A DNA stretch of 64,000 nt, taken from positions 32,001-96,000 of the IMG/VR virus record IMGVR_UViG_3300030102_005172; one strand, written 5' to 3'. The position numbers and the translations under genes are program-made. Under the pieces are notes generated by a model that was given only the letters and a program-made list of their open reading frames with translations, had not been told where the DNA came from and ran no database searches. Within the stretch, counting starts at the first letter, position 1. The number at the start of each line of letters is the position of its first letter. The stretch comes from a virus. Below are positions 45,984 to 63,621 of this stretch, piece by piece.

Positions 45984-48386
45984 TTATTCAGGGAACGCTG
46001 CGCCTGTTGGTAGTACATTGAAATCAAGTACTATAAACTCTGCAGTTTTCGCTGGTTGAATAAAAATCTCTCCTTTTAAGATGTTTCTATCAATAATATC
46101 TGGTGTATTATTTGATTCATCCATTATTACTCGGAATGCGAACAAACCTTGTCTCTGTTGTACTGACTCTAAGTAAGGGTTAACTATACTTAAGAATCTG
46201 TTTCTTGTCGCTGCCGTATTATTTTCGAACAATAAGAATCTTGAAGATGATGCGATGAACTTCTTCAATGCGATTAACAATCTTCTTACATTGATTCTGT
46301 CAAGTGCGGATGGTCTAGCTTGGAGTGTTTTTTGTCCAAATACCGTAGCACCTTGTCCAGGGAATGTAGCGATTGGGTTAATTCTATTTTCGTATAATGT
46401 ATCTCTTTCATCGTGAGTTAATCTTGATTTAACTTCGATTACATTTGATAAACCACCTCTGTTAAGACCTGCTGGTGCGAACCATGGTTCTGCAACTGCG
46501 TCATTAAATGCGATAACACCTGGTAATACAACACTTGGTGGTACCCAGACTGGCTTATTTTTATCTGTATCAAGGATTTTAACCCATGGATGATAAGTTC
46601 CAACATAATTTGAATCGAATGAACTTAGTGAGTTAACTACTGTTGCGATTGAATCTGAATAAGACCCAGCGTCCATTACATAGAATGCGTCTTGTCTATC
46701 TTCTACCATATCTTTTGCAAAAGTAGTTACTGATGAGTGTAGTCTATTGATTACACCTGGTGTAACTAACATATTCATATCATACTCATCAGGGTTTGAC
46801 ATTGCGTTAATAGCTTTTCTAAATGCAATCGTACCACCTGCAGTCGCTGATGATAAATCTAATCCTTGCATATTACCTGCAACAATGTTTTCTCCTGTAA
46901 GTATTGTTCTGTTTGGTGCGAATCCATCAAATCCACCTTGGAATGGTACATTGAATTTTTTATTGTCTATAATACCATCGTTTAGTGTAATTGCTGCTCC
47001 ATTTGAAATACAATTACTTAGTAAGAACTTAGAACCAACAGTTTCAGAACTTGAATCTGGAATTGGATTTAAGTAGTTTAAGTTATCTGTATTTGTAAAG
47101 TCATATGAGTATCCTAAGAATGCTCTCTTGTTAAATTCACCTGCAATTGACTGAGTTAGTTCATATGTTGGACTTGGTATATCGTGTCCACTATGAATTG
47201 GTGATTTAACTGCTGCAAATCCGAATGGTACAAGACTTGAATCGATTGCTCCCGCGTCTACATCAGAATTTACTTCTACTCTAATGTTTACAGATGCGTT
47301 TGGATAGTCACCATTTGAAGTAACTTTACCATTGTTATCAACAGTAATATATTTGTCACCAATTACTCTCTTAATATAGTTAGGTGAATTAGGGTCTAAG
47401 TTAAGTCCACTAAACTCTTCTACTATATTTGGTCTAACATCACTATCTTGTACATTTTGACCGAAAACAGAATAAGGAATCTTAGAACTATCTACTCTTC
47501 TTACTATTACTGAGAATGTTCCATATTCAGAACCAGGTACTTCATTTGCTGGTTTGATATCTCTAATACCAATTTTAAATTCGTAGTTTGTTGGATTACC
47601 ATGTGATAGTGTGTGGAATCTAAATAAGTTTTTAGTAACACCTGATACATCTTGTGATATGATGAAAGGTGTTGTAGCCTCACAATATGCTTTAGTATAG
47701 TCGGTTTTTCTAAGTGTATCTATTTCTACATCACAATTAGGGTCGCTGGCAAAAGACGATGATTGGAATGTTTTAAAGTTTAGATACAGATAACCGAATT
47801 CCGAACCATTTTTAGGAGATGAACCAAATGTTTTTCCAATATACTTGGTAGATGTTGGGTTCAATGATGCGGTTGCGATTGCAAGTACTGCTGATTCTGA
47901 TAAACCTGTTACTGCACCTGAAGCACTTAAATATAGTGCGAAGTTTGAAGCTGATACTTCTGTTGTTGGTGAAGCGGCTGAACCACTTAAGTTAGTGACT
48001 ACTGATTTATCAAACGAACCTGTTGAGTTTGCTACATTTCCAAATGGAACTTTTGTAGTTGGGTGAATCACCGCTGCTACTGAACCACTAATCTTTAAAA
48101 CTAAAGGTTCAACAGTATAACCACTTTGTCCTAATACTCTAACAATAGTTGCCGTTCCTGCGTCTTCTAAATACGATTGTGCAGTATATGGTAAATATGA
48201 ATCTTCTGTCAATCCACCGAATACCTGCGTAAATTCTTGAAAGGACTCGACTTTGGTTGGTACGAATGCAGGTCCTTTAATACTTTGTCCTATAAGTGCT
48301 GCACCTATTTCACCAATACCTTGAGGTAAAAATGATAGGTCTTTTTCTCTTGTGAATACACCTGGACTAACAATTCTTTCTGCCAT
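45984..48386 (-). CDS. Contractile tail sheath protein (gp18-like)
   Basis: SPGVFTREKD, WFAPAGLNRG, INPI..FPG.G...FGQKT, RINVRRL, PAKTAEFI. Confidence 0.95.
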   Translation of the reverse strand: MAERIVSPGVFTREKDLSFLPQGIGEIGAALIGQSIKGPAFVPTKVESFQEFTQVFGGLTEDSYLPYTAQSYLEDAGTATIVRVLGQSGYTVEPLVLKISGSVAAVIHPTTKVPFGNVANSTGSFDKSVVTNLSGSAASPTTEVSASNFALYLSASGAVTGLSESAVLAIATASLNPTSTKYIGKTFGSSPKNGSEFGYLYLNFKTFQSSSFASDPNCDVEIDTLRKTDYTKAYCEATTPFIISQDVSGVTKNLFRFHTLSHGNPTNYEFKIGIRDIKPANEVPGSEYGTFSVIVRRVDSSKIPYSVFGQNVQDSDVRPNIVEEFSGLNLDPNSPNYIKRVIGDKYITVDNNGKVTSNGDYPNASVNIRVEVNSDVDAGAIDSSLVPFGFAAVKSPIHSGHDIPSPTYELTQSIAGEFNKRAFLGYSYDFTNTDNLNYLNPIPDSSSETVGSKFLLSNCISNGAAITLNDGIIDNKKFNVPFQGGFDGFAPNRTILTGENIVAGNMQGLDLSSATAGGTIAFRKAINAMSNPDEYDMNMLVTPGVINRLHSSVTTFAKDMVEDRQDAFYVMDAGSYSDSIATVVNSLSSFDSNYVGTYHPWVKILDTDKNKPVWVPPSVVLPGVIAFNDAVAEPWFAPAGLNRGGLSNVIEVKSRLTHDERDTLYENRINPIATFPGQGATVFGQKTLQARPSALDRINVRRLLIALKKFIASSSRFLLFENNTAATRNRFLSIVNPYLESVQQRQGLFAFRVIMDESNNTPDIIDRNILKGEIFIQPAKTAEFIVLDFNVLPTGAAFPE

Positions 48387-50153: not shown

Positions 50154-51317
50154 TTATCCTATAAAAATTGGTCTTGGAACTCTGTTTAAAGTTTCCTCTA
50201 AAAATTCAGATTCTTCTTTTCGCGCTTCCATTAATGCTCTACGAGAAGTTGATTCTAACATTTCTTTCAATTCCGTTAATAAAGTTTCTTTTTCTGCAGA
50301 TGCCTCATTTCTTAAATCAGCACCATCAAGTGTTACATCCGCACCTGGTATAGGGATAGAACTAAACTTAGCTCTAATTGCACCTAACATTTCTTTTGCT
50401 AATGCCAATGCATATCTTGCAATCCATTGTTTTCCTGCACTATTAATATTTGTATATGTTAGTCTACCAAATGGTGCATTTGATAAATCACTCACAACAT
50501 TTGAATTTGCTATTGGTGATTTACTTTCACTTTCTAATGTATAATCAAAATATACTTTTGCACCTGCGTCTTTAGATTGTGGGAATGGATATAATCTAAT
50601 TCGTTTACCATCAACATGGAATCCATATGCAGACTTACGAATAAGGTCATTGAATTCAATAGCTTGTAATCTTAAAAGGTCATCAAACATAGGTTGCATC
50701 ATAAATGAGACACCAGGGGAATAATTACCCCATCCAAAAGTTTCTAACATTTGTTGAGAACCTAAACCTGTACCGATAAATGGGTCAAAGTATCTTATGA
50801 TTGCTGGTGGTTGTGTATGGAATACTCTTCTAAGTACAATTCCATCACTTACTGAACCACTTTCTAAACTTACAACACTTGCGTCACTCAAATCATAAAT
50901 TTGTTGATTTGCTACCATTGTAAAAGAACCTGTATATACTGTTACTCGTCCACCACTTAATCCTTCAGTACCATAATCTTTTGCTATACTAACCATACCA
51001 CTTAGGTTCGGTGCGATTTCAGTATCTTTTAAATCACCACCCAATGCAGAACCTTGTATGGATAACATATTTTCTTTTGCTCTATATTGATTAACTTGTG
51101 AAGAATATTCATTAGCTGCCTCTTCAAGACAAGTAAAAAAGTTTATATCTTGTAATTCGACATCTACGATTGGATATCCTAATCTCTTCGCACACCATTC
51201 TGCAACTTTCGGAGCGTCACTTTGAAATTGTGTATCACCATCAAAGTATCCGAAAGGAGTTGATGAACCACTTGTAAATGAACCTGAGCCAGGCCAAATT
51301 GGAATATTTACTGCCAT
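50154..51317 (-). CDS. Neck protein (gp13-like)
   Basis: RLGYPIVDVEL, WIARYALALAKEMLGAIRAKF, TLDGADL. Confidence 0.8.
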   Translation of the reverse strand: MAVNIPIWPGSGSFTSGSSTPFGYFDGDTQFQSDAPKVAEWCAKRLGYPIVDVELQDINFFTCLEEAANEYSSQVNQYRAKENMLSIQGSALGGDLKDTEIAPNLSGMVSIAKDYGTEGLSGGRVTVYTGSFTMVANQQIYDLSDASVVSLESGSVSDGIVLRRVFHTQPPAIIRYFDPFIGTGLGSQQMLETFGWGNYSPGVSFMMQPMFDDLLRLQAIEFNDLIRKSAYGFHVDGKRIRLYPFPQSKDAGAKVYFDYTLESESKSPIANSNVVSDLSNAPFGRLTYTNINSAGKQWIARYALALAKEMLGAIRAKFSSIPIPGADVTLDGADLRNEASAEKETLLTELKEMLESTSRRALMEARKEESEFLEETLNRVPRPIFIG

Positions 51318-51352: not shown

Positions 51353-53161
51353 TTAGCTTTCCCTATTTTCCATAAACGAAACTACAATATAACGAGTACC
51401 TTTTGTTGTAGCCCTTGCGCCGTGCTTATGTGTTATATTGCCAGGGTGTAATGTTGCGTAACCAATTGGACCTTTTACTAACTTCTTTTGTCTTCTAAAC
51501 CAAGTACCACCACCCTCGTACTCGTCTAAGTCTGATAATTGTATCAAACAAGTAATATCTGCTCTATCATGATGTATAGAAAGATGTCCTTGTGCATTTG
51601 GTTTATATTTAGCTAAAAAGTTTTCAGATTTCATATCATCCCAACCTTTACCTTCTAACGCCCATAAATATATGCTAAGTTGCATAACATACTCTTTCAT
51701 GACATCATTATATATTTCATCCATACCGATTGCGGTTAGTAACATATCTGTTGTTGGGTAGTTTTCATGTCTATCAACAGTCCATGAGTCTGAATATTCT
51801 GCCTCTTCTCTAATTTTTTTACAAAACTCTTCTGTAAATAGTGGGAATGTAAAACAACTATCAAAAGGTTCATCTACAATCAAATCCCATTCTTTTGTTC
51901 TAGCCGAGTATGTAATAAACTTCTTTGTCCATTCTTCTTTATTATCCCAATATGAATATAAATCATTATGTAATCTTTGTGAGTCTTGAGGTGGTCTAAA
52001 TCCCCTAGCCTCATCTGGTAATGTGTCTTGTATCATGTTTAACCAAGTTTTATATCTATTATCCCAATTTTGTTGTCTTGCAAATGTTTCTGCTTTGTTT
52101 AAATTTTCTTCTAATTTATCACCTTGTTCATTTGAAAAAGCATATGCCGCAACAAAAGTATATCTCATTAATCCTGCGTTTTTATTTTCAATGTCTTCAT
52201 CACTATCTTCTAAAAAAGGTGACTTTTGTTCTTGATTTTTTCCATGTGTAAATGAACTAATTAATGTACTTTTATTATTTAGTAATGTTTTTAAATTACC
52301 TGTATCTGTTGATAGTACTTTCACTCTACCCATCATCATTTCAAGAGCGGTTATACAATATGTTTCAGGATATTGTGATGGATAAATCCACCACTCAGAA
52401 GATTTAATTTGTCTAATCAAATCGGATGGATTTAAAGAACCTAAATAATGTACATCAAAATTTTTATCATAATTTGGAAAATCTCTTTTGATTCTATTCC
52501 ATTCGTCCCAATTGTCAGTATAAGGTGGGTTTGCAATCCATAATGTTAATTTAGGATTTATCTTTTTTAAATCATCCCATATTTGAAGTAAGTTCCATAA
52601 CCCTCTATCTGGTCCTGATGTATAAATTACTTTATCTTTAAATTTTTCTTGTGAAATATCATCAAAATCTTGTGGATTTATTGCATTACTTATGACTTTT
52701 ACTTTATCTGGATTTATATTATATTTTTTAACTAATTTACCTTTTTGCCATTCTGATACTGCAATTATATTTGTTAATTTAGAATGATTTAGATAGTCTA
52801 ATCCATTATTTGGTAAAACCTCACCATTGTAAAATGGATAAAATTCTAAATTATGTATCCAAAAGTACGATTTGTCAAATGTAATATTTTTTTCTTCAAG
52901 GTGTTTAAAATAGTGTATATAATTTGATGCAATTACTACATCAAAGTGTTGATTATTTGGAAGATTTCTATAATCAAGATATTTTACATTATTATATGTT
53001 TCTTGTTTAACTTGTCCTGTAACATAAACATCATGACCATCACGACCAAACTTATCTGCTAAATTAATAACACAATACTCAGAACCACCTGTACCATTTT
53101 CTTTCCAATCAGTATAACTAAGTGGTTTGTTTTGATATCCTACTGTAAATAAAACTTTCAT
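51353..53161 (-). CDS. Fusion: GT4 glycosyltransferase + PLOD-type lysyl hydroxylase (2OG-Fe(II)) domain
   Basis: N-terminal GGSE, YTSGPDRGL, ETYCITALE. C-terminal LHNDLY..W, FPLFTEEFC, ENYPTTD, NFLAKY.P..Q..L..HHD, YEGGGTWF, LHPGNITHKH, GTRYIVVSF. Confidence 0.85.
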   Translation of the reverse strand: MKVLFTVGYQNKPLSYTDWKENGTGGSEYCVINLADKFGRDGHDVYVTGQVKQETYNNVKYLDYRNLPNNQHFDVVIASNYIHYFKHLEEKNITFDKSYFWIHNLEFYPFYNGEVLPNNGLDYLNHSKLTNIIAVSEWQKGKLVKKYNINPDKVKVISNAINPQDFDDISQEKFKDKVIYTSGPDRGLWNLLQIWDDLKKINPKLTLWIANPPYTDNWDEWNRIKRDFPNYDKNFDVHYLGSLNPSDLIRQIKSSEWWIYPSQYPETYCITALEMMMGRVKVLSTDTGNLKTLLNNKSTLISSFTHGKNQEQKSPFLEDSDEDIENKNAGLMRYTFVAAYAFSNEQGDKLEENLNKAETFARQQNWDNRYKTWLNMIQDTLPDEARGFRPPQDSQRLHNDLYSYWDNKEEWTKKFITYSARTKEWDLIVDEPFDSCFTFPLFTEEFCKKIREEAEYSDSWTVDRHENYPTTDMLLTAIGMDEIYNDVMKEYVMQLSIYLWALEGKGWDDMKSENFLAKYKPNAQGHLSIHHDRADITCLIQLSDLDEYEGGGTWFRRQKKLVKGPIGYATLHPGNITHKHGARATTKGTRYIVVSFMENRES

Positions 53162-53162
53162 A

Positions 53163-54449
53163 TTATTCTACTATATAATTAACAGATTCTTCATTTTCAT
53201 AATATCGATTGTCATCCCTATAACCAATTTCTTTTATAGAATGTCCTGCCTCATCATCCCACATCCAATCTTCTTTTCCAAGTTCTTCAAATCTTTCTTT
53301 GATTTGAAAATCATAATAATCTCTAATCAACCTTGCTCTTCGATTAATATCTATTCTATTGTTATCAACAGTAGAATCACCATTATTATATTGTACATAT
53401 AGCATTTTTTTCAGATGTATAAATTTAGTTTCTAAAAATGTTTTAATAATTAATTCAAAATCATCTGCTACTGATATGTTTCTACTATGTCCTCTTATTT
53501 TATGATAAGTATCTCTATGCCAAACTCTACAATGATTAGGCATTCCTATATTATATCTAATAGTTTTTGGATTTATTTCTGGATAATGATGAACTAACCA
53601 ATCTCTATTATCAATGTTTTTCCAAGTGTGACCTGCGTATCCCCACACAAATCCATTATCAGGATGATGATACCAATCATCACCGATGTGACCATAAATT
53701 CTTGGTGAATCATCTTTTTCTATTTCTGTTACATCCGTATAAATAAATCCAGCGTCTTTATGTTTTCTACTTGCATTTAGTACATCCTCTAAACAAGTTG
53801 ATATTAACCAATCATCATGGTCTAACTCAAATAACCACTCACCATCACATAACATAGCCGCTCTGTGTTTTGCTTCACCCACATTTCCACCTGATATTGG
53901 GAGTATTCTATGTGGTTTTACTCTATAATCTAACTTTGCTATATGATTTAACATTTCCCAAGTTAAATTATGGTCTTCAGGTGAATCATCTACAACTACC
54001 CATTCCCAATTTTGATATGTTTGTTCAACTAAAGATTTGTATGTTCTAAAAATTCTTTTTTCTGTTTTATATGTTGGTGTAAATACTGATAATAATGGAG
54101 TTTCTTCATTACTATAAATTTCATTTGTTGAACAAGCCCAAAATGTTGAATTACAAACTATATCATTTGCAATAATGTTGTCACTTAGTATTTCTTCACT
54201 ACCAATTATTTTTGATTCAACTATTAGATTATCTATTTCTTCTAATTCAATAGGTAACTTACCAAAATGAAAAATAACATCTGGTTTATGTTTAGATAAA
54301 TGTAGTTTAAAGTTTTTACTTGAAGGATATGAGTGTACTACTACTTTTTCATACAAACCTTCTTGAAAATAGACATCTGATGTAAGTTCATATCTTCCAA
54401 ATCTATTCCAACCATAAACTAAAGCCGTTGGTAAAGTTGTTTTTTGCAT
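53163..54449 (-). CDS. Glycosyltransferase family 2 with extra N-terminal domain
   Basis: LSVFTPTY, EWVVVDDS, ELDHDD, ADDFEL. Confidence 0.85.
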   Translation of the reverse strand: MQKTTLPTALVYGWNRFGRYELTSDVYFQEGLYEKVVVHSYPSSKNFKLHLSKHKPDVIFHFGKLPIELEEIDNLIVESKIIGSEEILSDNIIANDIVCNSTFWACSTNEIYSNEETPLLSVFTPTYKTEKRIFRTYKSLVEQTYQNWEWVVVDDSPEDHNLTWEMLNHIAKLDYRVKPHRILPISGGNVGEAKHRAAMLCDGEWLFELDHDDWLISTCLEDVLNASRKHKDAGFIYTDVTEIEKDDSPRIYGHIGDDWYHHPDNGFVWGYAGHTWKNIDNRDWLVHHYPEINPKTIRYNIGMPNHCRVWHRDTYHKIRGHSRNISVADDFELIIKTFLETKFIHLKKMLYVQYNNGDSTVDNNRIDINRRARLIRDYYDFQIKERFEELGKEDWMWDDEAGHSIKEIGYRDDNRYYENEESVNYIVE

Positions 54450-54452
54450 ATC

Positions 54453-55055
54453 CTATCTGTATGGTTCACCACCTACCCATAATACAAAAGATTTTCTTAC
54501 ACCTTTTGTTACAGGAGTTATTCTATGTAAATAAAATGATGGAAATATTACTGCAGCACCTTGTACTCTTGGTGCAACAAGTTTTTTACCAATATTAAAC
54601 TCTAAATCACCACCTTCGTATTCATCTGAATCTGAAAGTTGTACAGTTACTGATATTTTTCTTTGATTTTGTATTTCAATTCCACAATCCATGTGCCATT
54701 CATATCCACCTTCTTGTGTTCCATAGTATTCTGTATATTGAATTTGTTCATTCATGGTAGATAAATCAAACTTCCACATTTTATTATTTGATTCTGCAAT
54801 CATATCGTGAAGTTTTTTGTATACCCATCCCCATTCTTGATTTTGAGGACACCACTTTATTCTTGATTTTCTATAATCTGATTTTTTTGATTGTTGACCT
54901 TCGCCTGTTACTGCGTCTTGAAACTCAATTTGTTTGGTCATACCTTCTATGGTTTGTAACTCTTGTAGAGTAAATCCATCTTTAAACCAATAATAATCGT
55001 TGAAATTAACATCCCATCTATAAGGGTTTCTATCGAATCCAAAATTTGTTCTCAT
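54453..55055 (-). CDS. 2OG-Fe(II) oxygenase (PKHD/prolyl-hydroxylase-like)
   Basis: YEWHMD, RKISVTVQLSD..EYEGGDL, FPSF..HRITPVTKGVRKS. Confidence 0.88.
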   Translation of the reverse strand: MRTNFGFDRNPYRWDVNFNDYYWFKDGFTLQELQTIEGMTKQIEFQDAVTGEGQQSKKSDYRKSRIKWCPQNQEWGWVYKKLHDMIAESNNKMWKFDLSTMNEQIQYTEYYGTQEGGYEWHMDCGIEIQNQRKISVTVQLSDSDEYEGGDLEFNIGKKLVAPRVQGAAVIFPSFYLHRITPVTKGVRKSFVLWVGGEPYR

Positions 55056-55096: not shown

Positions 55097-58000
55097 TTAG
55101 TAAAAGCTACCACTATGTACAGACCTTACTATGTAAACATCATCACCCTCAGACCAACCTTCAGGTTTAAATGTTAGTACACCACCAGTAACTTCAAAGT
55201 ATCCATCGCCAGGTATTTGAGAACCTTGAGCACCTGCTCCACCACCCGTTCCTACTGTTCCTGTTGGTCCTTGAGCACCTTGAGCACCTTGATTACCTTT
55301 AGCACCTACTGCGCCAGTATTTCCTTTATTACCTTTAGAACCTTTAGTACCTACTGCGCCTGTATTACCTTTTTTACCTTTGTTACCTGCGTCACCTGTT
55401 TCGCCTGTACGACCTAAGTTACCTTTACTACCTTTAGCACCTGCATTACCTTGTGGACCTGTATTACCCTTTTGACCTTTTGAACCTTGAGCACCTTCAT
55501 CACCAGATGCGCCTGTATTACCTTTTATACCTGTAAGACCTGTATTACCTTTTTGACCTTTAGCACCTGCGTCGCCTGTTTCACCCGTTGCACCTGTTGA
55601 ACCTTGTCGACCCTCTCCACCTGTTGAACCTTTAGCACCTGCGTTACCTTGTACTCCTTTATGTCCCTTGTTTCCTTTTGAACCTTGAGCACCCTCATCA
55701 CCTGATGCGCCTGTTGAACCTCTATTACCTTTGTTACCAGTTGCACCTTGAGAACCTACTGCACCTGCGTTACCTTGTGCTCCTCTATTTCCCTTGTTAC
55801 CCGTTGCACCTTTATTACCTTTTGCACCTGCCGCGCCTGTATTACCTTTTACACCAGTTGCACCTTGAAGTCCTTGAGCACCTTCATTACCTGATGCGCC
55901 TGTTGAACCTATATTACCTTTGTTACCAGTTGCACCTTGAGCACCTTGGTTTCCACTTGCACCTTGAGCACCTCGATTACCCTTTGCACCTTGATTTCCT
56001 TGAGAACCTTGATTTCCTGCCGCGCCTGTATTACCTTTTACACCAGTTGCACCTTGAGCACCTTGAGCACCTTCATCACCTGAAGCACCTTGTACTCCTT
56101 TATGTCCCTTTTGACCTTTTGAACCTTGAGCACCTTGATTACCTTTAGCACCTGCTGCACCTTGAGAACCTACTGCACCTTGAACTCCGGCATTACCTTG
56201 AGAACCTTGATTACCTGCAGCGCCTGTATTACCTTTTACACCCGTTGCACCTGGTTCACCTTTTTTACCTTTTTGACCCACAGAACCTTGAGCACCTTGA
56301 GCACCTTGGTTTCCTTTTGCACCTTGAGCACCTTGATTACCTTTAGCACCTGCAGCACCTTGAGAACCTACTGCACCTTGAACTCCGTCATTACCTTGAG
56401 AACCTTGATTTCCTGCTGCGCCTGGGTTTCCTATTTTACCATCACGACCTAAATTACCTTTTTGACCTTTGTTACCACTTGCACCTTGAGCACCTTGAGC
56501 ACCTCGGTTTCCTTTTGCACCTTGATTACCTTTAGCACCTTTAGCACCTGCCGCACCTTGAGCACCTTCAGCACCTTGAACTCCGTCATTACCTTGAGAA
56601 CCTTGATTACCTGCTGCGCCGGTATTTCCTTTATGACCATTACGACCTAAATTACCTTTTTGACCTTTATTACCTGCAGCGCCTGTATTACCTTTTGCAC
56701 CTTGATTACCTTGAGAACCTTGATTACCTGCAGCGCCTGTATTTCCTTTTACACCAGTTGCACCTTGAGCTCCCCTAGCACCTTCATCTACTAAACCACC
56801 TACTGCACCTTGAGCACCTTGAGCACCTGCAGCACCTTGTTCACCAGTAAAATCTTCCTCTAATATTTGTTCAGGGTCCATGTCAGAACCTTTTTGTCCC
56901 TTAGAACCTTGATTACCTTGATTACCTTTAACACCAGTTGCACCTTGAGGGCCTGTTGCACCTTGAGGGCCTGTATTTCCTTTTGCACCTTGTAGACCTG
57001 TTGCACCACCTTCACCTTTTGGACCTGCCGTACCTCTATTCCCTTTATCACCTGTTGCGCCTGTATTTCCTTTTGCACCTTGTCTACCTGTGTTTCCACT
57101 ATTCCCAACTGCACCTTGAGCACCTTGTGCACCTGTTTCACCATCAAAGTCTGGCTCTAATATTCCTTCGGGGTCCATCTCAGAACCTTTTTGTCCCTTT
57201 TGACCTGTTGCACCTTGATTACCTTTAACACCAGTTGCACCTTGAGGGCCTGTTGCACCTTGAGGGCCAGTTGCACCTTTTAAACCTTGTGGACCTTGAG
57301 CACCACCTTCACCTTTTGGAGCTCCAGCGCCAGTATTACCTTTTGCACCTGTTCTACCCGTTGCACCTGTCGAACCTTTAGCACCTGCGGCGCCCCTATT
57401 TCCTTTTGAACCTGTACGACCTAAGTTACCTTTAGCACCAAAATCACCCCCACTACCTTTATTTCCTTTTACACCTGTTGCACCTTGAGCACCTTGAGCG
57501 CCTGTTTCAGCCGCTGCACCTTGTCTACCTGTATTTCCTTTTACACCTTGTGGACCTTGAGCACCTTGGTTTCCACTTGCACCTTTATTTCCTTTATGGC
57601 CTGTTGCACCTGCTGCACCTTGAGCACCTTGATTACCTACTCGGCCTGTATTTCCTTTTGCACCTTGTCTACCTGTGTTTCCACTTGGAGCGTCTACACC
57701 TGCCGCACCCGGCACACCAGTATTTCCTTTATGGCCTGTTGCACCCATTGAACCTTTTTGACCTGCGGCGCCAGTATTTCCTTTATGGCCTGTTGCACCC
57801 GTTGAACCTTTTTGACCTGCAATACCTGTATTTCCTTTTACACCTGTTGCGCCTGTATTTCCTTTTGCACCTTTATTACCTGCAGCGCCTGTATTACCTT
57901 TTGCACCCGTTCTACCTTGATTACCCGTTGAACCTTTTTGACCTACTGCGCCGGTATTTCCTTTTGCACCTGTTCTACCCGTTGCGCCTGTTGAACCCTT

Positions 58001-59200
58001 TGCACCTGCTGCGCCTGTATTTCCTTTTGCACCTGTTCTACCTAAATTTCCTGTTGGTGGGTCTGCACCTGCCGAACCTGGCCTACCTACTCGGCCTGTA
58101 TTTCCTTTTGAACCTGTTGCACCTTGAGGGCCTGTTGCGCCTGTTGGGGCGTCTGAACCTGCCGCTCCTTGAGCACCTTGAGCACCATTTAGGGCCACAT
58201 CAGCTGAAGCTCCTTGAGCACCAGCAGACCCAACTTTTCCTTGAGAACCTGCTGCACCTTGAGCACCTTGAGCACCTGTTGGTCCAAGTTGTCCAGCTGG
58301 TGCCAGATGTTCCTCTCCTTTTTGACCTTTTGAACCTTTAGGACCTGTTGAAGAGTCTGAATCGGTACAAGAACTACAATTTGAGAACCAATCGAAATTA
58401 TCTACAGTTAAACATAATGCAGTACCATCTGGAAAACTAGCGTTTGTACCACTAAAGTTGTAACAAATATTACTGATTTTTGCTACATTGTTTGGTCTTG
58501 TATCATCAAATGCAAAACTTGCTGGTCCATATCCACTACATCTTGGTACATTATTATACTGAACTGAACATCCCTCATCACCATTAAAAAAGTTGTGTAC
58601 TACGAATCTATTTACCATGAATAGGTCAGATTCTTCTACATCTAAACTTCTAACATCAAAATATCCATATATAGGTTCATCTTCATTTACTTCTTGTACA
58701 CCATCTATAATTGGTACATATTCGAATGTAGAATTATCTTCTTTTAGTCTTACTAAGTAATGATTGTCATAATCACTTGCATTTCCCCACTCAAGACCAT
58801 CTAATTGTTCAAAGAAAACATTCCATCCGCTTTGAAAAGATGATGTAGTTTCAGTTTCTTCGTCCCAACTAAATGCTCTATTTTTTTGAGCAACCATGAT
58901 GTATTCATCTTCATCGAGAGTTAGTGAACCTGATGGTGTTTCTAATGTGTATAGTGATTTCCAAAGTCTTGTACCTATTGGTCCTACATCTTTGATAACC
59001 TCATTTTCATTTAATTGAAGATATGAAAAATCATCGTAACTACCTGTCCAATTTATTGGAATGTCATTATTATTTGTATATGGGTTACCAACAATACTAA
59101 CACCTACAATAGAAGAACCTGTTTGAAGTGTACCTATTGCGGCAGTATTACCTGATAGATTTAGTAAAGTATGTTGAGATTTTAAGAAACCACCAATCAT
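55097..59200 (-). CDS. Hint-domain + Cys-rich + collagen-like fibre protein (Lys-rich)
   Basis: [18 protein letters not shown] at aa 186-203; six-Cys segment; Gly-X-Y from about aa 286 over more than 1000 aa; short C-terminal beta domain. Confidence 0.85.
55217..58345 (-). repeat. Collagen Gly-X-Y coding repeat
   Basis: 9-nt periodic acc-nnn-nnn pattern on the plus strand. Confidence 0.9.
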
Positions 59201-59219: not shown

Positions 59220-62200
59220 TTAAGAAGAACCACTTGTATACATTAATACTACAAATTTTGTACTTCCACTTGTAAATGTTAATAATCCGTCTGTTGCCGA
59301 GTATGCGAATCCACCACTTCCACCTATTTCAGCGCCACCAATTAATGTTCCTAATGCATTTGCACCTTTTTGACCTTTACTTCCTTGACCACCTTGAGCA
59401 CCTGTTGCACCTTGAGCACCTTGTTCACCTGTTGGACTAGCACCTTGAGCACCTTGAGCACCTTGGTCACCTTTTGGACTGGCACCTTGAGCACCTTGAG
59501 CTCCTGTTGGACTTGCACCTTGAGCACCTTGTGGTCCTTGAGCACCTTGAGCACCTTGAGGACTTGCACCTTGAGCACCTGTTGCACCTTGAGCACCTTG
59601 TTCACCTTGTTCACCTGTTGGACTAGCACCTTGAGCACCTTGAGAACCTTTTGGTCCTTGAGCACCTTGAGCTCCTTGAGGACTTGAACCTTGAGCACCT
59701 TGAGGTCCTTGAGCACCTTGTGGTCCTTGAGCACCTTGAGCACCTTGAGGACTAGCACCTTGAGCACCTGTTACACCTTGAGCACCTTGTTCACCTTGTT
59801 CACCTGTTGGACTTGCTCCTTGAGCACCTTGAGGTCCTTGAGCACCTTGAGGTCCTTGAGCACCTTGAGGACTTGACCCTTGAGCACCTTGTGGTCCTTG
59901 AGCACCTTGATTACCTTGAGCACCTTGAGGACTAGCACCTTGAGCACCTTGTGAACCTTTAGGTCCTTGAGCACCTTGTTCACCTGTTGGACTAGCACCT
60001 TGAGCACCTTGAGGTCCTTGAGCACCTTGATTACCTTGAGCACCTTGAGGACTTGAACCTTGAGCACCTTGTTCACCTTGTTCACCTTTTGGTCCTTGAG
60101 CACCTTGAGGACTGGCACCTTGAGCACCTTGTGAACCTTTAGGTCCTTGAGCACCTTGTTCACCTGTTGGACTAGCACCTTGAGCACCTTGGACACCTTG
60201 AGCACCTTGAACACCCGTTGCACCTTGAGCACCTTGAGGACTTGAACCTTGAGCACCTTGTTCACCTTGTTCACCTTGAGCACCTTGAGCACCTTGAGGA
60301 CTGGCACCTTGAGCACCTTGAGAACCTTTTGGTCCTTGAGCACCCTGTTCACCTTGTGGACTTGCCCCTTGAGCACCTTGGAGACCTGTTGCACCTTGAG
60401 CACCCGTTGCACCTTGAGCACCTTGCGGACTTGCACCTTGAGCACCTTGTTCACCTTGTTCACCTTGAGCACCTTGAGCACCTTGTGGACTTGCTCCTTG
60501 AGCACCTTGAGAACCTTTTGGTCCTTGAGCACCTTGAGCACCTTGTGGACTTGCCCCTTGAGCACCTTGGAGACCTGTTGCACCTTGAGCACCCGTTGCA
60601 CCTTGAGCACCTTGAGGACTTGAACCTTGAGCACCTTGTTCACCTTGTTCACCTTGAGCACCTTGAGCACCTTGAGGACTGGCACCTTGAGCACCTTGAG
60701 AACCTTTTGGTCCTTGAGCACCTTGAGCTCCTTGAGGACTTGCACCTTGAGCACCTTGAGAACCTTTTGGTCCTTGAGCCCCTGTTGGACTTGCACCTTG
60801 AGCACCTTGAGAACCTTTAGGTCCTTGAGCACCTGAATCACCTTGAGCACCTTGAGCACCTTGAGCACCTGCAGCACCTTGAGCACCTGCACTACCTTGA
60901 GCACCTTGTAGACCTTGAGCACCAGTACCTTGGTCACCTTTAGGACCTTTTGCACCTTGTGCACCTGTATTACCTTTAGGTCCTTGAGCACCTTGTGGTC
61001 CTTGAGCACCCGTTGCTCCTTGAGCACCTTGAGGTCCTTGAGCACCTTGAGCACCTTGTGGACTTGAACCCGTTGCTCCTTGAGCACCTTGTGGTCCTTG
61101 AGCACCTTGATTACCTTTAGGTCCTTGAGCACCTTGAGCACCTGTTGTTCCTTGTGCACCTTGATTACCTTGAGCACCCGTTGCCCCTTGAGCACCAGCA
61201 CCTTGGTCACCTTTAGGACCTTTTGCACCTTGTGCACCTGTATTACCTTTAGGTCCTTGAGCACCTTGTGGTCCTTGCGCACCCGTTGCACCTTGAGCAC
61301 CTTGATTACCTTGTGGACCTTGAGCACCTTGTGGACTTGAACCTGCCGCTCCTTGAGCACCTTGAGGTCCTTGAGCACCTTGAGCACCTTGTGGACTTGA
61401 ACCTTGAGCACCTTGTGAACCTTTAGGTCCTTGAGCACCTTGAGCACCTTGTGGACTAGCACCTTGAGCACCTTGATTACCTTTTGGTCCTTGAGCACCT
61501 TGAGCACCTTGAGGTGATGACCCTGCAGGTCCTTGAGCACCTTGTGAACCTTTAGGTCCTTGAGCACCTTGAGGACTGGCACCTTGAGCACCTTGATTAC
61601 CTTTAGGTCCTTGAGCACCTTGAGCACCTTGTGGACTTGAACCTTGAGCACCTTGTGAACCTTTTGGTCCTTGAGCACCTTGAGCACCTGTTGTAGTTCC
61701 ACCTTGTGGACCTTGAGCACCTTGAGACCCTTTAGGTCCTTGAGCACCTTGAGGACTTGAACCTTGAGCACCTTGTGAACCTTTAGGTCCTTGAGCACCT
61801 TGAGGACTTGAACCTTGAGCACCTTGTGAACCTTTTGGACCTTGAGCACCTTGTGAACCTTTTGGACTTGAACCTTGAGCACCTTGTGAACCTTTTGGTC
61901 CTTGAGCACCTTGAGCACCTTGTGGACTTGAACCTTGAGCACCTTGTGAACCTTTTGGACCTTGAGCTCCTTGAGCACCTTGAGGACTTGCACCTTGAGC
62001 ACCTTGAGAACCTTTTGGACCTTGAGCACCTTGAGCACCTGTTGTAGTTCCACCTTGTGGGCCTTGAGCACCTTGTGCACCTTGAGAACCTTTTGGTCCT
62101 TGAGCACCTTGAGGTCCTTGAGAACCTTGTGTAGTTCCACCCGTTGCACCTTGAGCACCTTGAGAACCTTGTACACTTGCACCCGTTGCACCTTGAGCAC

Positions 62201-62774
62201 CTTGAGAACCTTTTGGTCCTGAACTACCCGATGAACCTTGAGCACCTGTTGGTCCTTTTGCACCTGTTGAACCTGGCGAACCACCGGCACCTTTTTGACC
62301 TTTTTGACCTTTTTGACCTTGTGGTCCTGTGTTATGTACTAATAACTCACCTATAAAATAATTGTGGTCAGGTTCTACCTCTATACTTATGAGTTCTATT
62401 GGTCCTTCTACATATTTTACTGAAGTGACCTTAATATCGTTGAAGAATAGTTTACCATCACACTTACAATCTTTATCTGCGCATGATGTATTACCGATTG
62501 GTGAAACCCATTCACCATCTTTGAATATTTTTATATCAACGGAAGTTTTTAATTCAGTTCCGTCTGAAAGTTTAAGTTCTAAATAGGAGTTTAGTTGTCG
62601 TGTAAATTTAGTTACAACCTTGTTGTACCTTACGACACCATTTTCAACATCATAACCTTTTATGTAGTCACCAACTTCAATATTTGACAAGTTAATTGGA
62701 ACACCTTGTCTTTTATTTACTCTTCCTTTGATGTCTACTAAGGTATCTTTATGTAATCCATGTATTAATTCCAT
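59220..62774 (-). CDS. Hint-domain + collagen-like fibre protein (GAQ/GPQ-rich)
   Basis: GLHKDTLV...IEVGD...[18 protein letters not shown]|TG (aa 6-148), then about 990 aa of Gly-X-Y with SPQ inserts. Confidence 0.9.
59360..62327 (-). repeat. Collagen Gly-X-Y coding repeat dominated by accttgagc
   Basis: Long run of near-identical 9-nt units with periodic 6-nt inserts. Confidence 0.92.
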
Positions 62775-62784
62775 AATTTACCCC

Positions 62785-63621
62785 TTAACTAACAAAATCA
62801 AGTCTTAATATTATTGTAAAACCAAATCCTCGTGACCTTGTGGTTGCCATTCTATTAATAAATAAATTTAATCTATCATTAGCACTAAAACTATATGATG
62901 AACCAAAAGTATAAGTTGTTGGAACACCTGCCGTTGCTGAAATTGAACCACCTATTGCACTTCCTAAATTTCCAGATTGGTTTTTCCATGTTAGTTCAAC
63001 TTCACCACCCGTTGCAGATTGATGTGGACTTACAATTACTTTTTCTACATATCCATCTACGGGAACAACATATTGCCAATAACCAGTTTGAACATCACCA
63101 TCTATTTGGTTTATATTTGCAAATGGGATATAACCAGTTGTTTCAGCTGCTTTTAGTACCTCACCATTTGTATGTATTATTTGTTTTTCTTTTGTTGCGT
63201 CAATTAGACCAGTAATTTCAACACCACTACTCTGTACTCTTAATTTTGTACTACCACCTCGTCTAAGATGTACTTCATCACTAGCATTTAAAAGTAATTT
63301 AGTACCTGAAGTTGTAGATTCTATGTCAGAACTTGCTCCGAAGTTCACTTTCTTATCTGAAGATAGGTTTATTTCATCTGCAGTAGTGATATCACCACTA
63401 ACTTGTAAAGAACCTGTGACTTGAACACCAGTATTATTTGTTTTTAATCTTGTTGAACCGCCTGTTACAAGTACAATAGTATTACCTGCACTAAATCCAA
63501 ATTTAGTGTCTGTATCACCTAAGTGTTCAACATATTGTGGTATAAGTATTTCACCTGATGCGGTGATATCATTCAGTACGGCGTTACTGCCTGATGTAAT
63601 AAGTTTTTTCCAATTTGGCAT
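62785..63621 (-). CDS. Putative virion fibre/structural protein
   Basis: 278 aa, beta-rich; GDTDTKFGF..NTIVL.TGG..RL fibre-like repeats. Confidence 0.55.
   Translation of the reverse strand: MPNWKKLITSGSNAVLNDITASGEILIPQYVEHLGDTDTKFGFSAGNTIVLVTGGSTRLKTNNTGVQVTGSLQVSGDITTADEINLSSDKKVNFGASSDIESTTSGTKLLLNASDEVHLRRGGSTKLRVQSSGVEITGLIDATKEKQIIHTNGEVLKAAETTGYIPFANINQIDGDVQTGYWQYVVPVDGYVEKVIVSPHQSATGGEVELTWKNQSGNLGSAIGGSISATAGVPTTYTFGSSYSFSANDRLNLFINRMATTRSRGFGFTIILRLDFVS

Follow-up and report, generated by a model that had tools for sequence, protein, structure and literature searches.

To our knowledge, hydroxylysine and the Glc-Gal glycan that it carries count as hallmarks of animal collagen; the single exception among viruses is mimivirus. 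The mimivirus protein L230 (6ax6, 6ax7 and 9nev) is a bifunctional collagen lysyl hydroxylase/hydroxylysyl glucosyltransferase and presumably modifies collagen-like proteins of the same virus. Phage collagens are described as short capsid segments, and giant viruses are named as the only viruses that hydroxylate and glycosylate collagen (PMC8968730); other dioxygenase families have been predicted to modify bacterial collagen-like proteins (PMC2938197). In the literature searched, whose supplements may hold lysyl hydroxylase (LH) phylogenies, we found no description of a bacteriophage LH of the type of the animal procollagen-lysine dioxygenases (PLODs), or of an LH fused to a GT-B/GT4 glycosyltransferase. 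Here we report such a fusion from an uncultured marine T4-like myovirus. The DNA analysed, 64,000 nucleotides long and called the window in the following, comprises positions 32001-96000 of the 118-kb IMG/VR virus record IMGVR_UViG_3300030102_005172, whose completeness is estimated at about 66%. The GT4-LH fusion gene is a single open reading frame (ORF) with exact bounds on the minus strand of the window (51353..53161) and encodes 602 amino acids (aa). We propose, with a probability of about 0.65, that the substrate of this enzyme is the phage's own collagen-like fibres, whose lysines it hydroxylates and glycosylates. The proposal builds on the domain identities, the intact catalytic residues of both domains, a gene order that is conserved among related loci and the different fusions found in other phages. 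From these we infer the substrate, the sequence of the steps, the sugars and the purpose.

A preliminary description of this gene had recognized a PLOD-type LH domain in the C-terminal part of the protein and a GT4-like domain in the remainder. All motifs quoted there are present in the ORF translation (RLHNDLYSYW, FPLFTEEFC, ENYPTTD, ENFLAKYKPNAQGHLSIHHD, EYEGGGTWF and LHPGNITHKHGARATTKGTRYIVVSF for the hydroxylase; GGSE, PDRGL and ETYCITALE for the glycosyltransferase), and, judged by sequence, the likeness to LH motifs is far beyond chance. The hydroxylase is indeed the C-terminal domain, but it begins slightly upstream of the position first given (51975), near residue 392 (window position 51988). 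This PLOD-type domain, with a 2-oxoglutarate (2OG)/Fe(II) double-stranded beta-helix fold, extends over 51353..51988 on the minus strand (residues 392-602 plus the stop codon). A phmmer search of PDB sequences with the whole protein matched human LH3 over query residues 392-598 (6fxk, E=6.7e-30) and the LH domain of mimivirus L230 (6ax6, E=2.7e-22), and the LH domain as sole query gave E=3.4e-30 and E=5.1e-22 for the same two proteins. In Pfam, residues 395-500 matched the OGFOD2-like family PF25238 with 38.9 bits (cut-off 31). An AlphaFold2 model of the 602-aa protein, built with 48 homologues, had a mean predicted local distance difference test score (pLDDT) of 85.6, and low confidence was confined to the linkers at residues 308-327 and 381-393. 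In Foldseek, the model fits the solved L230 LH domain (6ax6_B, 6ax7_B), whose fold includes an LH-specific N-terminal helical part, with a target-normalised template modelling (TM) score of 0.85, a root-mean-square deviation of 2.3-2.5 Å over 205-206 columns and 31-32% identity.

In L230, the Fe(II) triad is formed by His825, Asp827 and His877, and the 2OG C5-carboxylate is bound by Tyr814 and Arg887 (PMC5802723). A HMMER alignment to 6ax6_A placed these residues opposite H530, D532, H580, Y519 and R590 of the phage protein (L230 numbers are 6ax6_A chain numbers plus 660, an offset confirmed by the match of all five residue types). The corresponding codons lie at 51572-51574 (H530), 51566-51568 (D532), 51422-51424 (H580), 51605-51607 (Y519) and 51392-51394 (R590). 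All five residues are invariant in 48/48 aligned homologues (41-88% identity), confirming that the Fe-binding HxD...H and the 2OG-binding arginine are intact. I576 is equally invariant and aligns with L230 Leu873, a residue of the dimer interface that makes a hydrophobic contact in the tail-to-tail homodimer (PMC5802723). The complex prediction for two copies of residues 392-602 scored 0.00 (mark 0.42), which speaks neither for nor against dimerisation.

The N-terminal partner is a GT-B (GT4-like) glycosyltransferase domain (residues 1-379; 52025..53161, minus strand), identified by Pfam and Foldseek. Two GT4 families of Pfam matched above their cut-offs: Glyco_transf_4 at residues 120-164 (36.1 bits, cut-off 28.5) and Glycos_transf_1 at residues 185-298 (35.4 bits, cut-off 26.4). 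Against PDB sequences, this half of the protein gave only a weak match, to a GT-B glycosyltransferase (7mi0, E=0.0013). In Foldseek, the N-terminal domain of the model matched PimA (2gej, TM 0.71), BshA, MshA and HepE, with TM scores of 0.64-0.71. GT_PLOD (PF25342) had no Pfam match in the 602-aa protein; it is present in an animal PLOD (Lingula P0264), in the L230-like P0258, and in P0249, P0149 and others. The pairing of the hydroxylase with a GT-B/GT4 domain rather than a GT-A domain, as first described, therefore stands. E-x7-E is a motif of the C-terminal domain of GT4 enzymes, and the phage protein carries it as E266-TYCITAL-E274 (codons 52364-52366 and 52340-52342, minus strand), together with a G23/G26 loop. 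E266, E274, G23 and G26 are invariant in 48/48 homologues. Because the active-site residues of both domains show this invariance, the LH and GT4 domains both look catalytically competent.

Beyond the window, the family to which the protein belongs comprises over 100 clusters (90% identity). A word-indexed protein search returned 261 proteins; most of the 120 listed have 558-603 aa, the same Pfam set and an origin in marine metagenomes. Their source names are 'hypothetical' or 'glycosyltransferase involved in cell wall biosynthesis'. With the LH domain as query, an exhaustive phmmer search of 1.84 billion cluster representatives yielded 1964 matches at E<=1e-3, of which 475 had E<=1e-10 and 86 E<=1e-30. 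Domain architectures were assigned with local profiles to 163 proteins (the best 150 of the LH search and 13 from the word search; 18 were checked with Pfam). LH alone was found in 76 proteins, some of which may be fragments, GT4-GT25-LH in 27, GT25-LH in 18, GT4-LH in 14, GT_PLOD-LH in 14 and GT25-GT_PLOD-LH in 11, and 4 were other or unclassified.

We placed the window LH in a quick maximum-likelihood tree that retained only the 134 LH domains with a length of 175 residues or more [IQ-TREE, LG+G4, unrooted; support by the Shimodaira-Hasegawa-like approximate likelihood ratio test (SH-aLRT)]. It falls in a 17-row clade (SH-aLRT 95) of 11 GT4-LH, 4 GT4-GT25-LH and 2 GT25-LH rows, and this clade is nested among additional GT4-GT25-LH rows. 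The GT_PLOD-bearing proteins, among them Lingula PLOD1, a choanoflagellate protein and the L230-like GT25-GT_PLOD-LH proteins, lie in a separate 34-row clade (SH-aLRT 99). The tree puts the window LH outside the animal/choanoflagellate PLOD clade and within a clade of GT4/GT25 fusions. The preliminary description had called the protein an independently assembled one. Because the clade of the window LH lies outside the GT_PLOD-bearing clade, the GT4 fusion is a separate assembly, but it is not a one-off, given the size of the family and its combinatorial set of architectures. Domain shuffling around LH is frequent, since the tree requires no fewer than 38 changes of the partner-domain label (mean of 75 after shuffling). 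Most simply, the two-domain GT4-LH derives from the three-domain form by loss of GT25, with gain as the alternative.

The strongest functional clue is the adjacency of collagen-like fibre genes, and comparative genomics is the main functional evidence. In the order of the coding strand, the genes encode a 278-aa protein, a collagen-like protein of 1184 aa (59220..62774), a collagen-like protein of 1367 aa (55097..59200), a 200-aa oxygenase (Oxy200; 54453..55055), a 428-aa GT2 glycosyltransferase (53163..54449) and GT4-LH, followed downstream by a 387-aa neck/head-tail adaptor-like protein (50154..51317), three small structural proteins and the tail sheath (45984-48386). The module genes share one strand, the minus strand of the window, with intergenic gaps of 1-40 nucleotides (nt), and the neck-like gene ties them to the late structural operon that reaches the tail sheath. 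GT4-LH thus sits in the late structural operon.

This order was compared among 88 viral loci of the phage group to which the window belongs (sheath 69-92% identical), with counts restricted to loci with enough flanking sequence; many of the 88 are near-identical, so that they amount to far fewer than 88 independent observations. The oxygenase gene lies upstream of the LH gene in 71/71 loci with at least 2.1 kb of upstream sequence. A GT2 gene is directly upstream of the LH gene in 70 of the 75 loci with at least 1.4 kb and missing in five; the loci of this lineage shown without GT2 are L055, L056, L078-L082 and L086. Of the 76 loci with sufficient sequence, 75 have a collagen-like ORF whose end lies no more than 2 kb upstream of the oxygenase, and the sole miss (L071) has a 99-aa fragment slightly below the threshold. 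Downstream of the LH gene, the neck gene is present in 87/87 loci with at least 1.3 kb. The closest relatives among L001-L031 are 72-76% identical to the window in GT4-LH and about 50% in the collagen proteins, versus 87-94% in neck and sheath; faster divergence of GT4-LH and the collagens than of their flanks is expected of host-interaction modules.

In eight of the 88 loci, the same slot encodes a GT4-GT25-LH protein of 788-792 aa. The GT25 domain of this protein is similar in sequence to human procollagen galactosyltransferase 1 over its catalytic region (E=4.6e-13). A BLAST comparison places the domain exactly at the linker that spans residues ~379 to ~394 in the window protein. One of these relatives (P0063, 788 aa) is 75% identical to the window protein in the LH domain and 43% in the other half, which makes LH the more conserved half. 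A GT25 domain was found neither in the fusion protein of the window nor elsewhere in the 118-kb record (about 66% complete), in which the GT2 gene is the only other glycosyltransferase of the module besides GT4-LH.

The set recurs in a second phage lineage (L114-L121, IMG/VR contigs of 39-212 kb) with other flanks, namely PhoH, thymidylate synthase and a long-tail-fibre connector. In six of these eight loci, collagen-like ORFs lie upstream of a separate GT4 (341-383 aa; Pfam Glycos_transf_1 was checked in one locus, L114) and a GT25-LH protein (430-470 aa). Between collagen and GT4, five of the six have an oxygenase homologue (40-49% identical), which was not detected in L116. The module is then followed by auxiliary genes, e.g. 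a phosphoheptose-isomerase-like gene and PhoH. The same parts, differently joined beside the same type of putative substrate, are the classic signature of enzymes of one pathway.

Both fibre proteins offer many candidate sites. Their ORFs, which match Pfam Collagen above the cut-off, are the only ones in the 118-kb record with such a match, and the 1367-aa protein also matches tail-fibre families of PHROG. It has 990 residues in Gly-X-Y runs and 93 lysines, 81 at Y and none at X, with 82 Lys-Gly sites; the 1184-aa protein has 897 residues in Gly-X-Y runs, 35 lysines at Y and 39 Lys-Gly sites, giving 121 X-Lys-Gly sites in the two (82 + 39). We considered the Y:X bias of lysine (81:0) as a pointer to the hydroxylase and rejected it, because control collagens of phages without the enzyme show the same bias: nine collagen-like proteins, from cyanophages, coliphages, mycobacteriophages, a Gordonia phage and a Staphylococcus phage, have lysine 87 times at Y and once at X. 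What remains of the lysine evidence after this control is the availability of sites and their roughly twofold density (lysine at Y in 3495 of 16541 triplets, or 21%, in 65 distinct module ORFs, versus 87 of 781, or 11%, in the control). A tblastn search of 50,697 phage records for the fusion found no full-length relative; 15 records matched, none over 80% of the query.

Across the 65 distinct module collagen ORFs, the counts at X and Y are 31 and 3495 for lysine and 2508 and 54 for proline. Arginine is far more frequent at X (199) than at Y (28) in the same ORFs. This preference of arginine for X is the reverse of the animal collagen pattern.

In the mechanism that we propose, the LH domain, using Fe(II), 2-oxoglutarate and O2, would hydroxylate the Y-position lysine of Gly-X-Lys-Gly in both fibres, presumably on unfolded chains prior to the triple helix. 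The GT4 domain, of the retaining type, would either attach a sugar to the hydroxylysine so formed or lengthen a glycan started by another glycosyltransferase, which would be the neighbouring GT2 here and the fused GT25 in the relatives; the product would be a mono- or disaccharide. In animal collagen, an inverting enzyme places the first, beta-linked sugar, and an alpha-linked second sugar follows. By analogy, an inverting GT25 or GT2 might place the first, beta-linked sugar and the retaining GT4 add the alpha-linked second one. Since five of 75 loci have no GT2, GT4 may also act directly on hydroxylysine. The P4H-like oxygenase (P4H, prolyl 4-hydroxylase) would act on a further kind of residue in these fibres, with proline as the likeliest target of hydroxylation, and because proline is placed so predominantly at X, this reaction would not be the classical Y-position one. 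The purpose could be fibre stability, protease resistance or host recognition.

Several points weigh against the fibres, or against hydroxylysine, as the target. Two of the eight loci of the second lineage have no collagen-like ORF inside the available flank. GT4-LH was also found on five bacterial contigs at 39-45% identity (Chromatiales ex Bugula, two Granulosicoccaceae, and metagenome-assembled genomes (MAGs) of a Rhodobacteraceae and an Aliishimia), where it is a lone gene amid housekeeping genes with no collagen-like ORF nearby (four loci; flanks of 10 kb each side in L034, L035 and L038 and of 10 kb on one side in L036, with less than 1.3 kb in the fifth, L037). The restriction of lysine to Y is, as the control showed, a general property of phage collagens and not specific. 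Since the collagen LHs with proven activity fall in a clade that does not include the window LH, the latter could have a different specificity. GT4, GT2 and GT25 are families that mostly build polysaccharides, and the GT4 domain might glycosylate threonine or serine of the fibres rather than hydroxylysine. Finally, we did not find hydroxylysine described in any phage protein in the literature searched.

Some of these points would also fit a different role, in which GT4, GT2 and the GT25 of the relatives act on the host envelope or a sugar polymer (O-antigen or capsule remodelling, superinfection exclusion), LH modifies a target other than collagen, and the adjacency to the fibre genes merely reflects the variable host-recognition region of T4-like marine phages. 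The profile matches of GT4, GT2 and GT25 are to enzymes of lipopolysaccharide (LPS), teichuronic acid and exopolysaccharide synthesis, homologues are named for cell wall biosynthesis or 'GR25 family ... LPS biosynthesis', and the bacterial homologues stand apart from collagen genes. Moreover, the host-recognition regions of pelagimyophages contain collagen repeats and many glycosyltransferases, and the latter are read there as modifiers of the host O-chain (PMC7029224), which likewise weighs against modification of the fibres. However, in hundreds of clusters the glycosyltransferase domains are covalently fused to a peptidyl-lysine hydroxylase domain, and the GT25 of the relatives matches the catalytic domain of a human collagen galactosyltransferase. 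The set of collagen, oxygenase, GT4 and LH recurs in two phage lineages with differing fusion states. In the window, the enzyme genes share the strand of the fibre genes on one side and the neck gene on the other, with short gaps, as expected of late structural genes. We consider an envelope role unlikely on balance.

Slightly less probable still is that LH hydroxylates lysine or another residue of a different protein (neck, sheath, capsid or a host protein) instead of the collagen-like fibres. Such a target would be in keeping with the position of the window LH in a large bacterial and phage radiation with at least 50 stand-alone LH domains, outside the proven collagen-enzyme clade, with a lysine pattern that is generic and hence no specific pointer, and with the absence of collagen neighbours from the bacterial GT4-LH genes. 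Both characterised relatives, though, act on X-Lys-Gly of collagen (PMC5802723, PMC9546862), and the adjacency to collagen-like genes is tight and repeated. Lys-rich collagen-like ORFs are, in addition, encoded elsewhere in bacterial genomes with GT4-LH: matches to fibre segments were found in three of the four whole genomes searched, and Lys-Gly-bearing collagen-like ORFs in two of the four. The Aliishimia MAG (G003, L106) encodes a 779-aa collagen-like ORF with 64 lysines at Y and weak EF-hand matches, and in Chromatiales ex Bugula (G001, L107) the collagen-like ORFs adjoin a homologue of the 200-aa oxygenase. That either domain, or both together, lacks catalytic activity and only assists the fibres in a structural or chaperone-like way, for which the non-catalytic accessory domains of animal PLODs could be cited, is very improbable in view of the Fe triad, the 2OG tyrosine and arginine and the GT4 E-x7-E, kept in every aligned homologue, and of an LH domain that is the most conserved part of the protein. 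Modification of the phage's own fibres thus remains the reading that we prefer.

The other genes of the module were assigned as follows. The 428-aa GT2 (GT-A) glycosyltransferase, immediately upstream of GT4-LH, matches Pfam Glycos_transf_2 (E=1.8e-16) and chondroitin synthase 2z87 (E=1.1e-12). The 200-aa protein is a P4H-like/PKHD-type 2OG-Fe(II) oxygenase by its matches to Pfam 2OG-FeII_Oxy_3 (E=3.6e-13) and PiuC (E=7e-7). Its model (pLDDT 79.3) is closest in Foldseek to peptidyl prolyl 4-hydroxylases (TM 0.60-0.70), among them Pseudomonas P4H (4iw3, TM 0.70) and the PBCV-1 collagen prolyl hydroxylase (5c5t, TM 0.66). Directly downstream of GT4-LH, the neck-like protein matches PHROG 211 head-tail adaptor (E=4e-14). 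In the 1184-aa fibre, the N-terminus (62325-62774) has weak matches to PT-HINT (E=5e-4; 20.7 bits, cut-off 27.7) and intein splicing (E=1.6e-3), both below cut-off; at the N-terminus of the 1367-aa fibre (58334-59200), Pfam gave no match to a Hint-type domain. The 278-aa protein before the collagen genes (62785..63621, minus strand) keeps its position in L030, L040, L044 and L056 (33-71% identity) and has a weak match to DUF2345 (E=8e-5, below cut-off). Nearly all long ORFs of the window are on the minus strand, and its G+C content is about 33%, the collagen genes excepted.

The tail sheath shares 55% identity with its counterpart in Microcystis phage Mel-JY01 and about 35% with T4-type sheaths. 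In Mel-JY01 (L096), the nearest cultured relative by sheath, PhoH is followed directly by neck-type genes, and no collagen, oxygenase or LH module was found at the corresponding place, a single case and not a test. The cultured cyanophages S-CAM7 (of Synechococcus, L097) and ACG-2014f (L103) have collagen-like tail-fibre genes beside annotated glycosyltransferase genes, with LH absent; glycosylated collagen-like fibres may be more general among marine myoviruses. A search of marine metatranscriptomes returned three runs of one study with small word shares (0.06-0.08). Eight short contigs from them (151-208 nt; seven at >=99% and one at 95-99%) match the neck gene, GT4-LH, GT2 and the oxygenase; they indicate presence rather than transcription, as DNA can occur in RNA libraries and the contigs show neither strand nor level.

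A wider picture may be considered, which we put forward tentatively and hold to be possible rather than probable. Marine phages and a few marine bacteria might carry a self-contained pathway of collagen lysine modification (PLOD-type LH, COLGALT-like GT25, retaining GT4 and a P4H-like oxygenase in varied fusions) that puts glycosylated hydroxylysine on triple-helical virion fibres of about 1000 residues; it would be the first modification of this kind outside eukaryotes and their giant viruses. The bacterial and phage radiation, and not animals, would then be the source of the LH and GT25 domains of metazoan PLOD and COLGALT. If the phage enzyme works as we propose above, the chemistry of animal collagen would be widespread in ocean bacteriophages, on virion fibres made in the bacterial cytoplasm without an ER (endoplasmic reticulum), and phages would decorate their fibres much as animals decorate collagen. 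Glycosyltransferases of host-recognition regions may then decorate the phage's own fibres, which would change the interpretation of adsorption and host range. The finding also makes the origin of the PLOD and COLGALT domains testable by rooted phylogeny. Hydroxylated and glycosylated recombinant collagen made in bacteria is a noted gap (PMC9546862), and the compact, prokaryote-native LH, GT4 and GT25 in several fusion states would be candidates for making modified recombinant collagen in bacteria.

Several known systems share parts of this arrangement. The P4Hs (PBCV-1 vCPH 5c5t, algal 3gze and Pseudomonas 4iw3) and PKHD-type PiuC share their fold with the 200-aa oxygenase, which travels with collagen-like genes both in phages and in a single bacterial genome. 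A classical collagen P4H acts on Y-position proline; in the phage fibres, in contrast, proline is almost confined to X, which leaves the target residue of the oxygenase uncertain. The GT4 enzymes PimA (2gej), BshA (6n1x), MshA (3c4q) and HepE (4xso) have the same two-Rossmann GT-B fold and E-x7-E as the N-terminal domain, but their identity to it is only 11-15%, their substrates are lipids or small molecules, and none of them has a dioxygenase as fusion partner. Human COLGALT1/GLT25D1 (9evj, 8zgc_U), a GT25 enzyme, has its counterpart between GT4 and LH in the same slot of phage relatives, whereas the window protein and the 118-kb record are without GT25.

The closest likeness is to the collagen enzymes themselves. 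Human LH3/PLOD3 (6fxk, 8one, 8zgc) and animal PLOD1-3 have a homologous LH domain of about 207 residues with the same Fe and 2OG residues, and LH3, like the phage protein, combines hydroxylase and glycosyltransferase within one polypeptide. The PLODs differ in that they have an N-terminal GT-A PLOD glycosyltransferase (PF25342) and an accessory domain where the phage protein has GT-B/GT4, and they are ER enzymes, whereas the phage enzyme is cytoplasmic and outside the PLOD clade. With L230, the phage protein shares the virus-encoded LH-glycosyltransferase fusion, the collagen-like genes in the same genome and the five catalytic residues. However, L230-like proteins are GT25-GT_PLOD-LH (P0258, LH part E=1.9e-66 to 6ax6), and L230 belongs to a giant virus of eukaryotes, whereas GT4-LH is that of a bacteriophage. 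A viral bifunctional collagen LH/glycosyltransferase is already known in L230; relative to it, the novel elements are a GT-B partner, the setting in a phage and a modular family of GT4, GT25 and LH.

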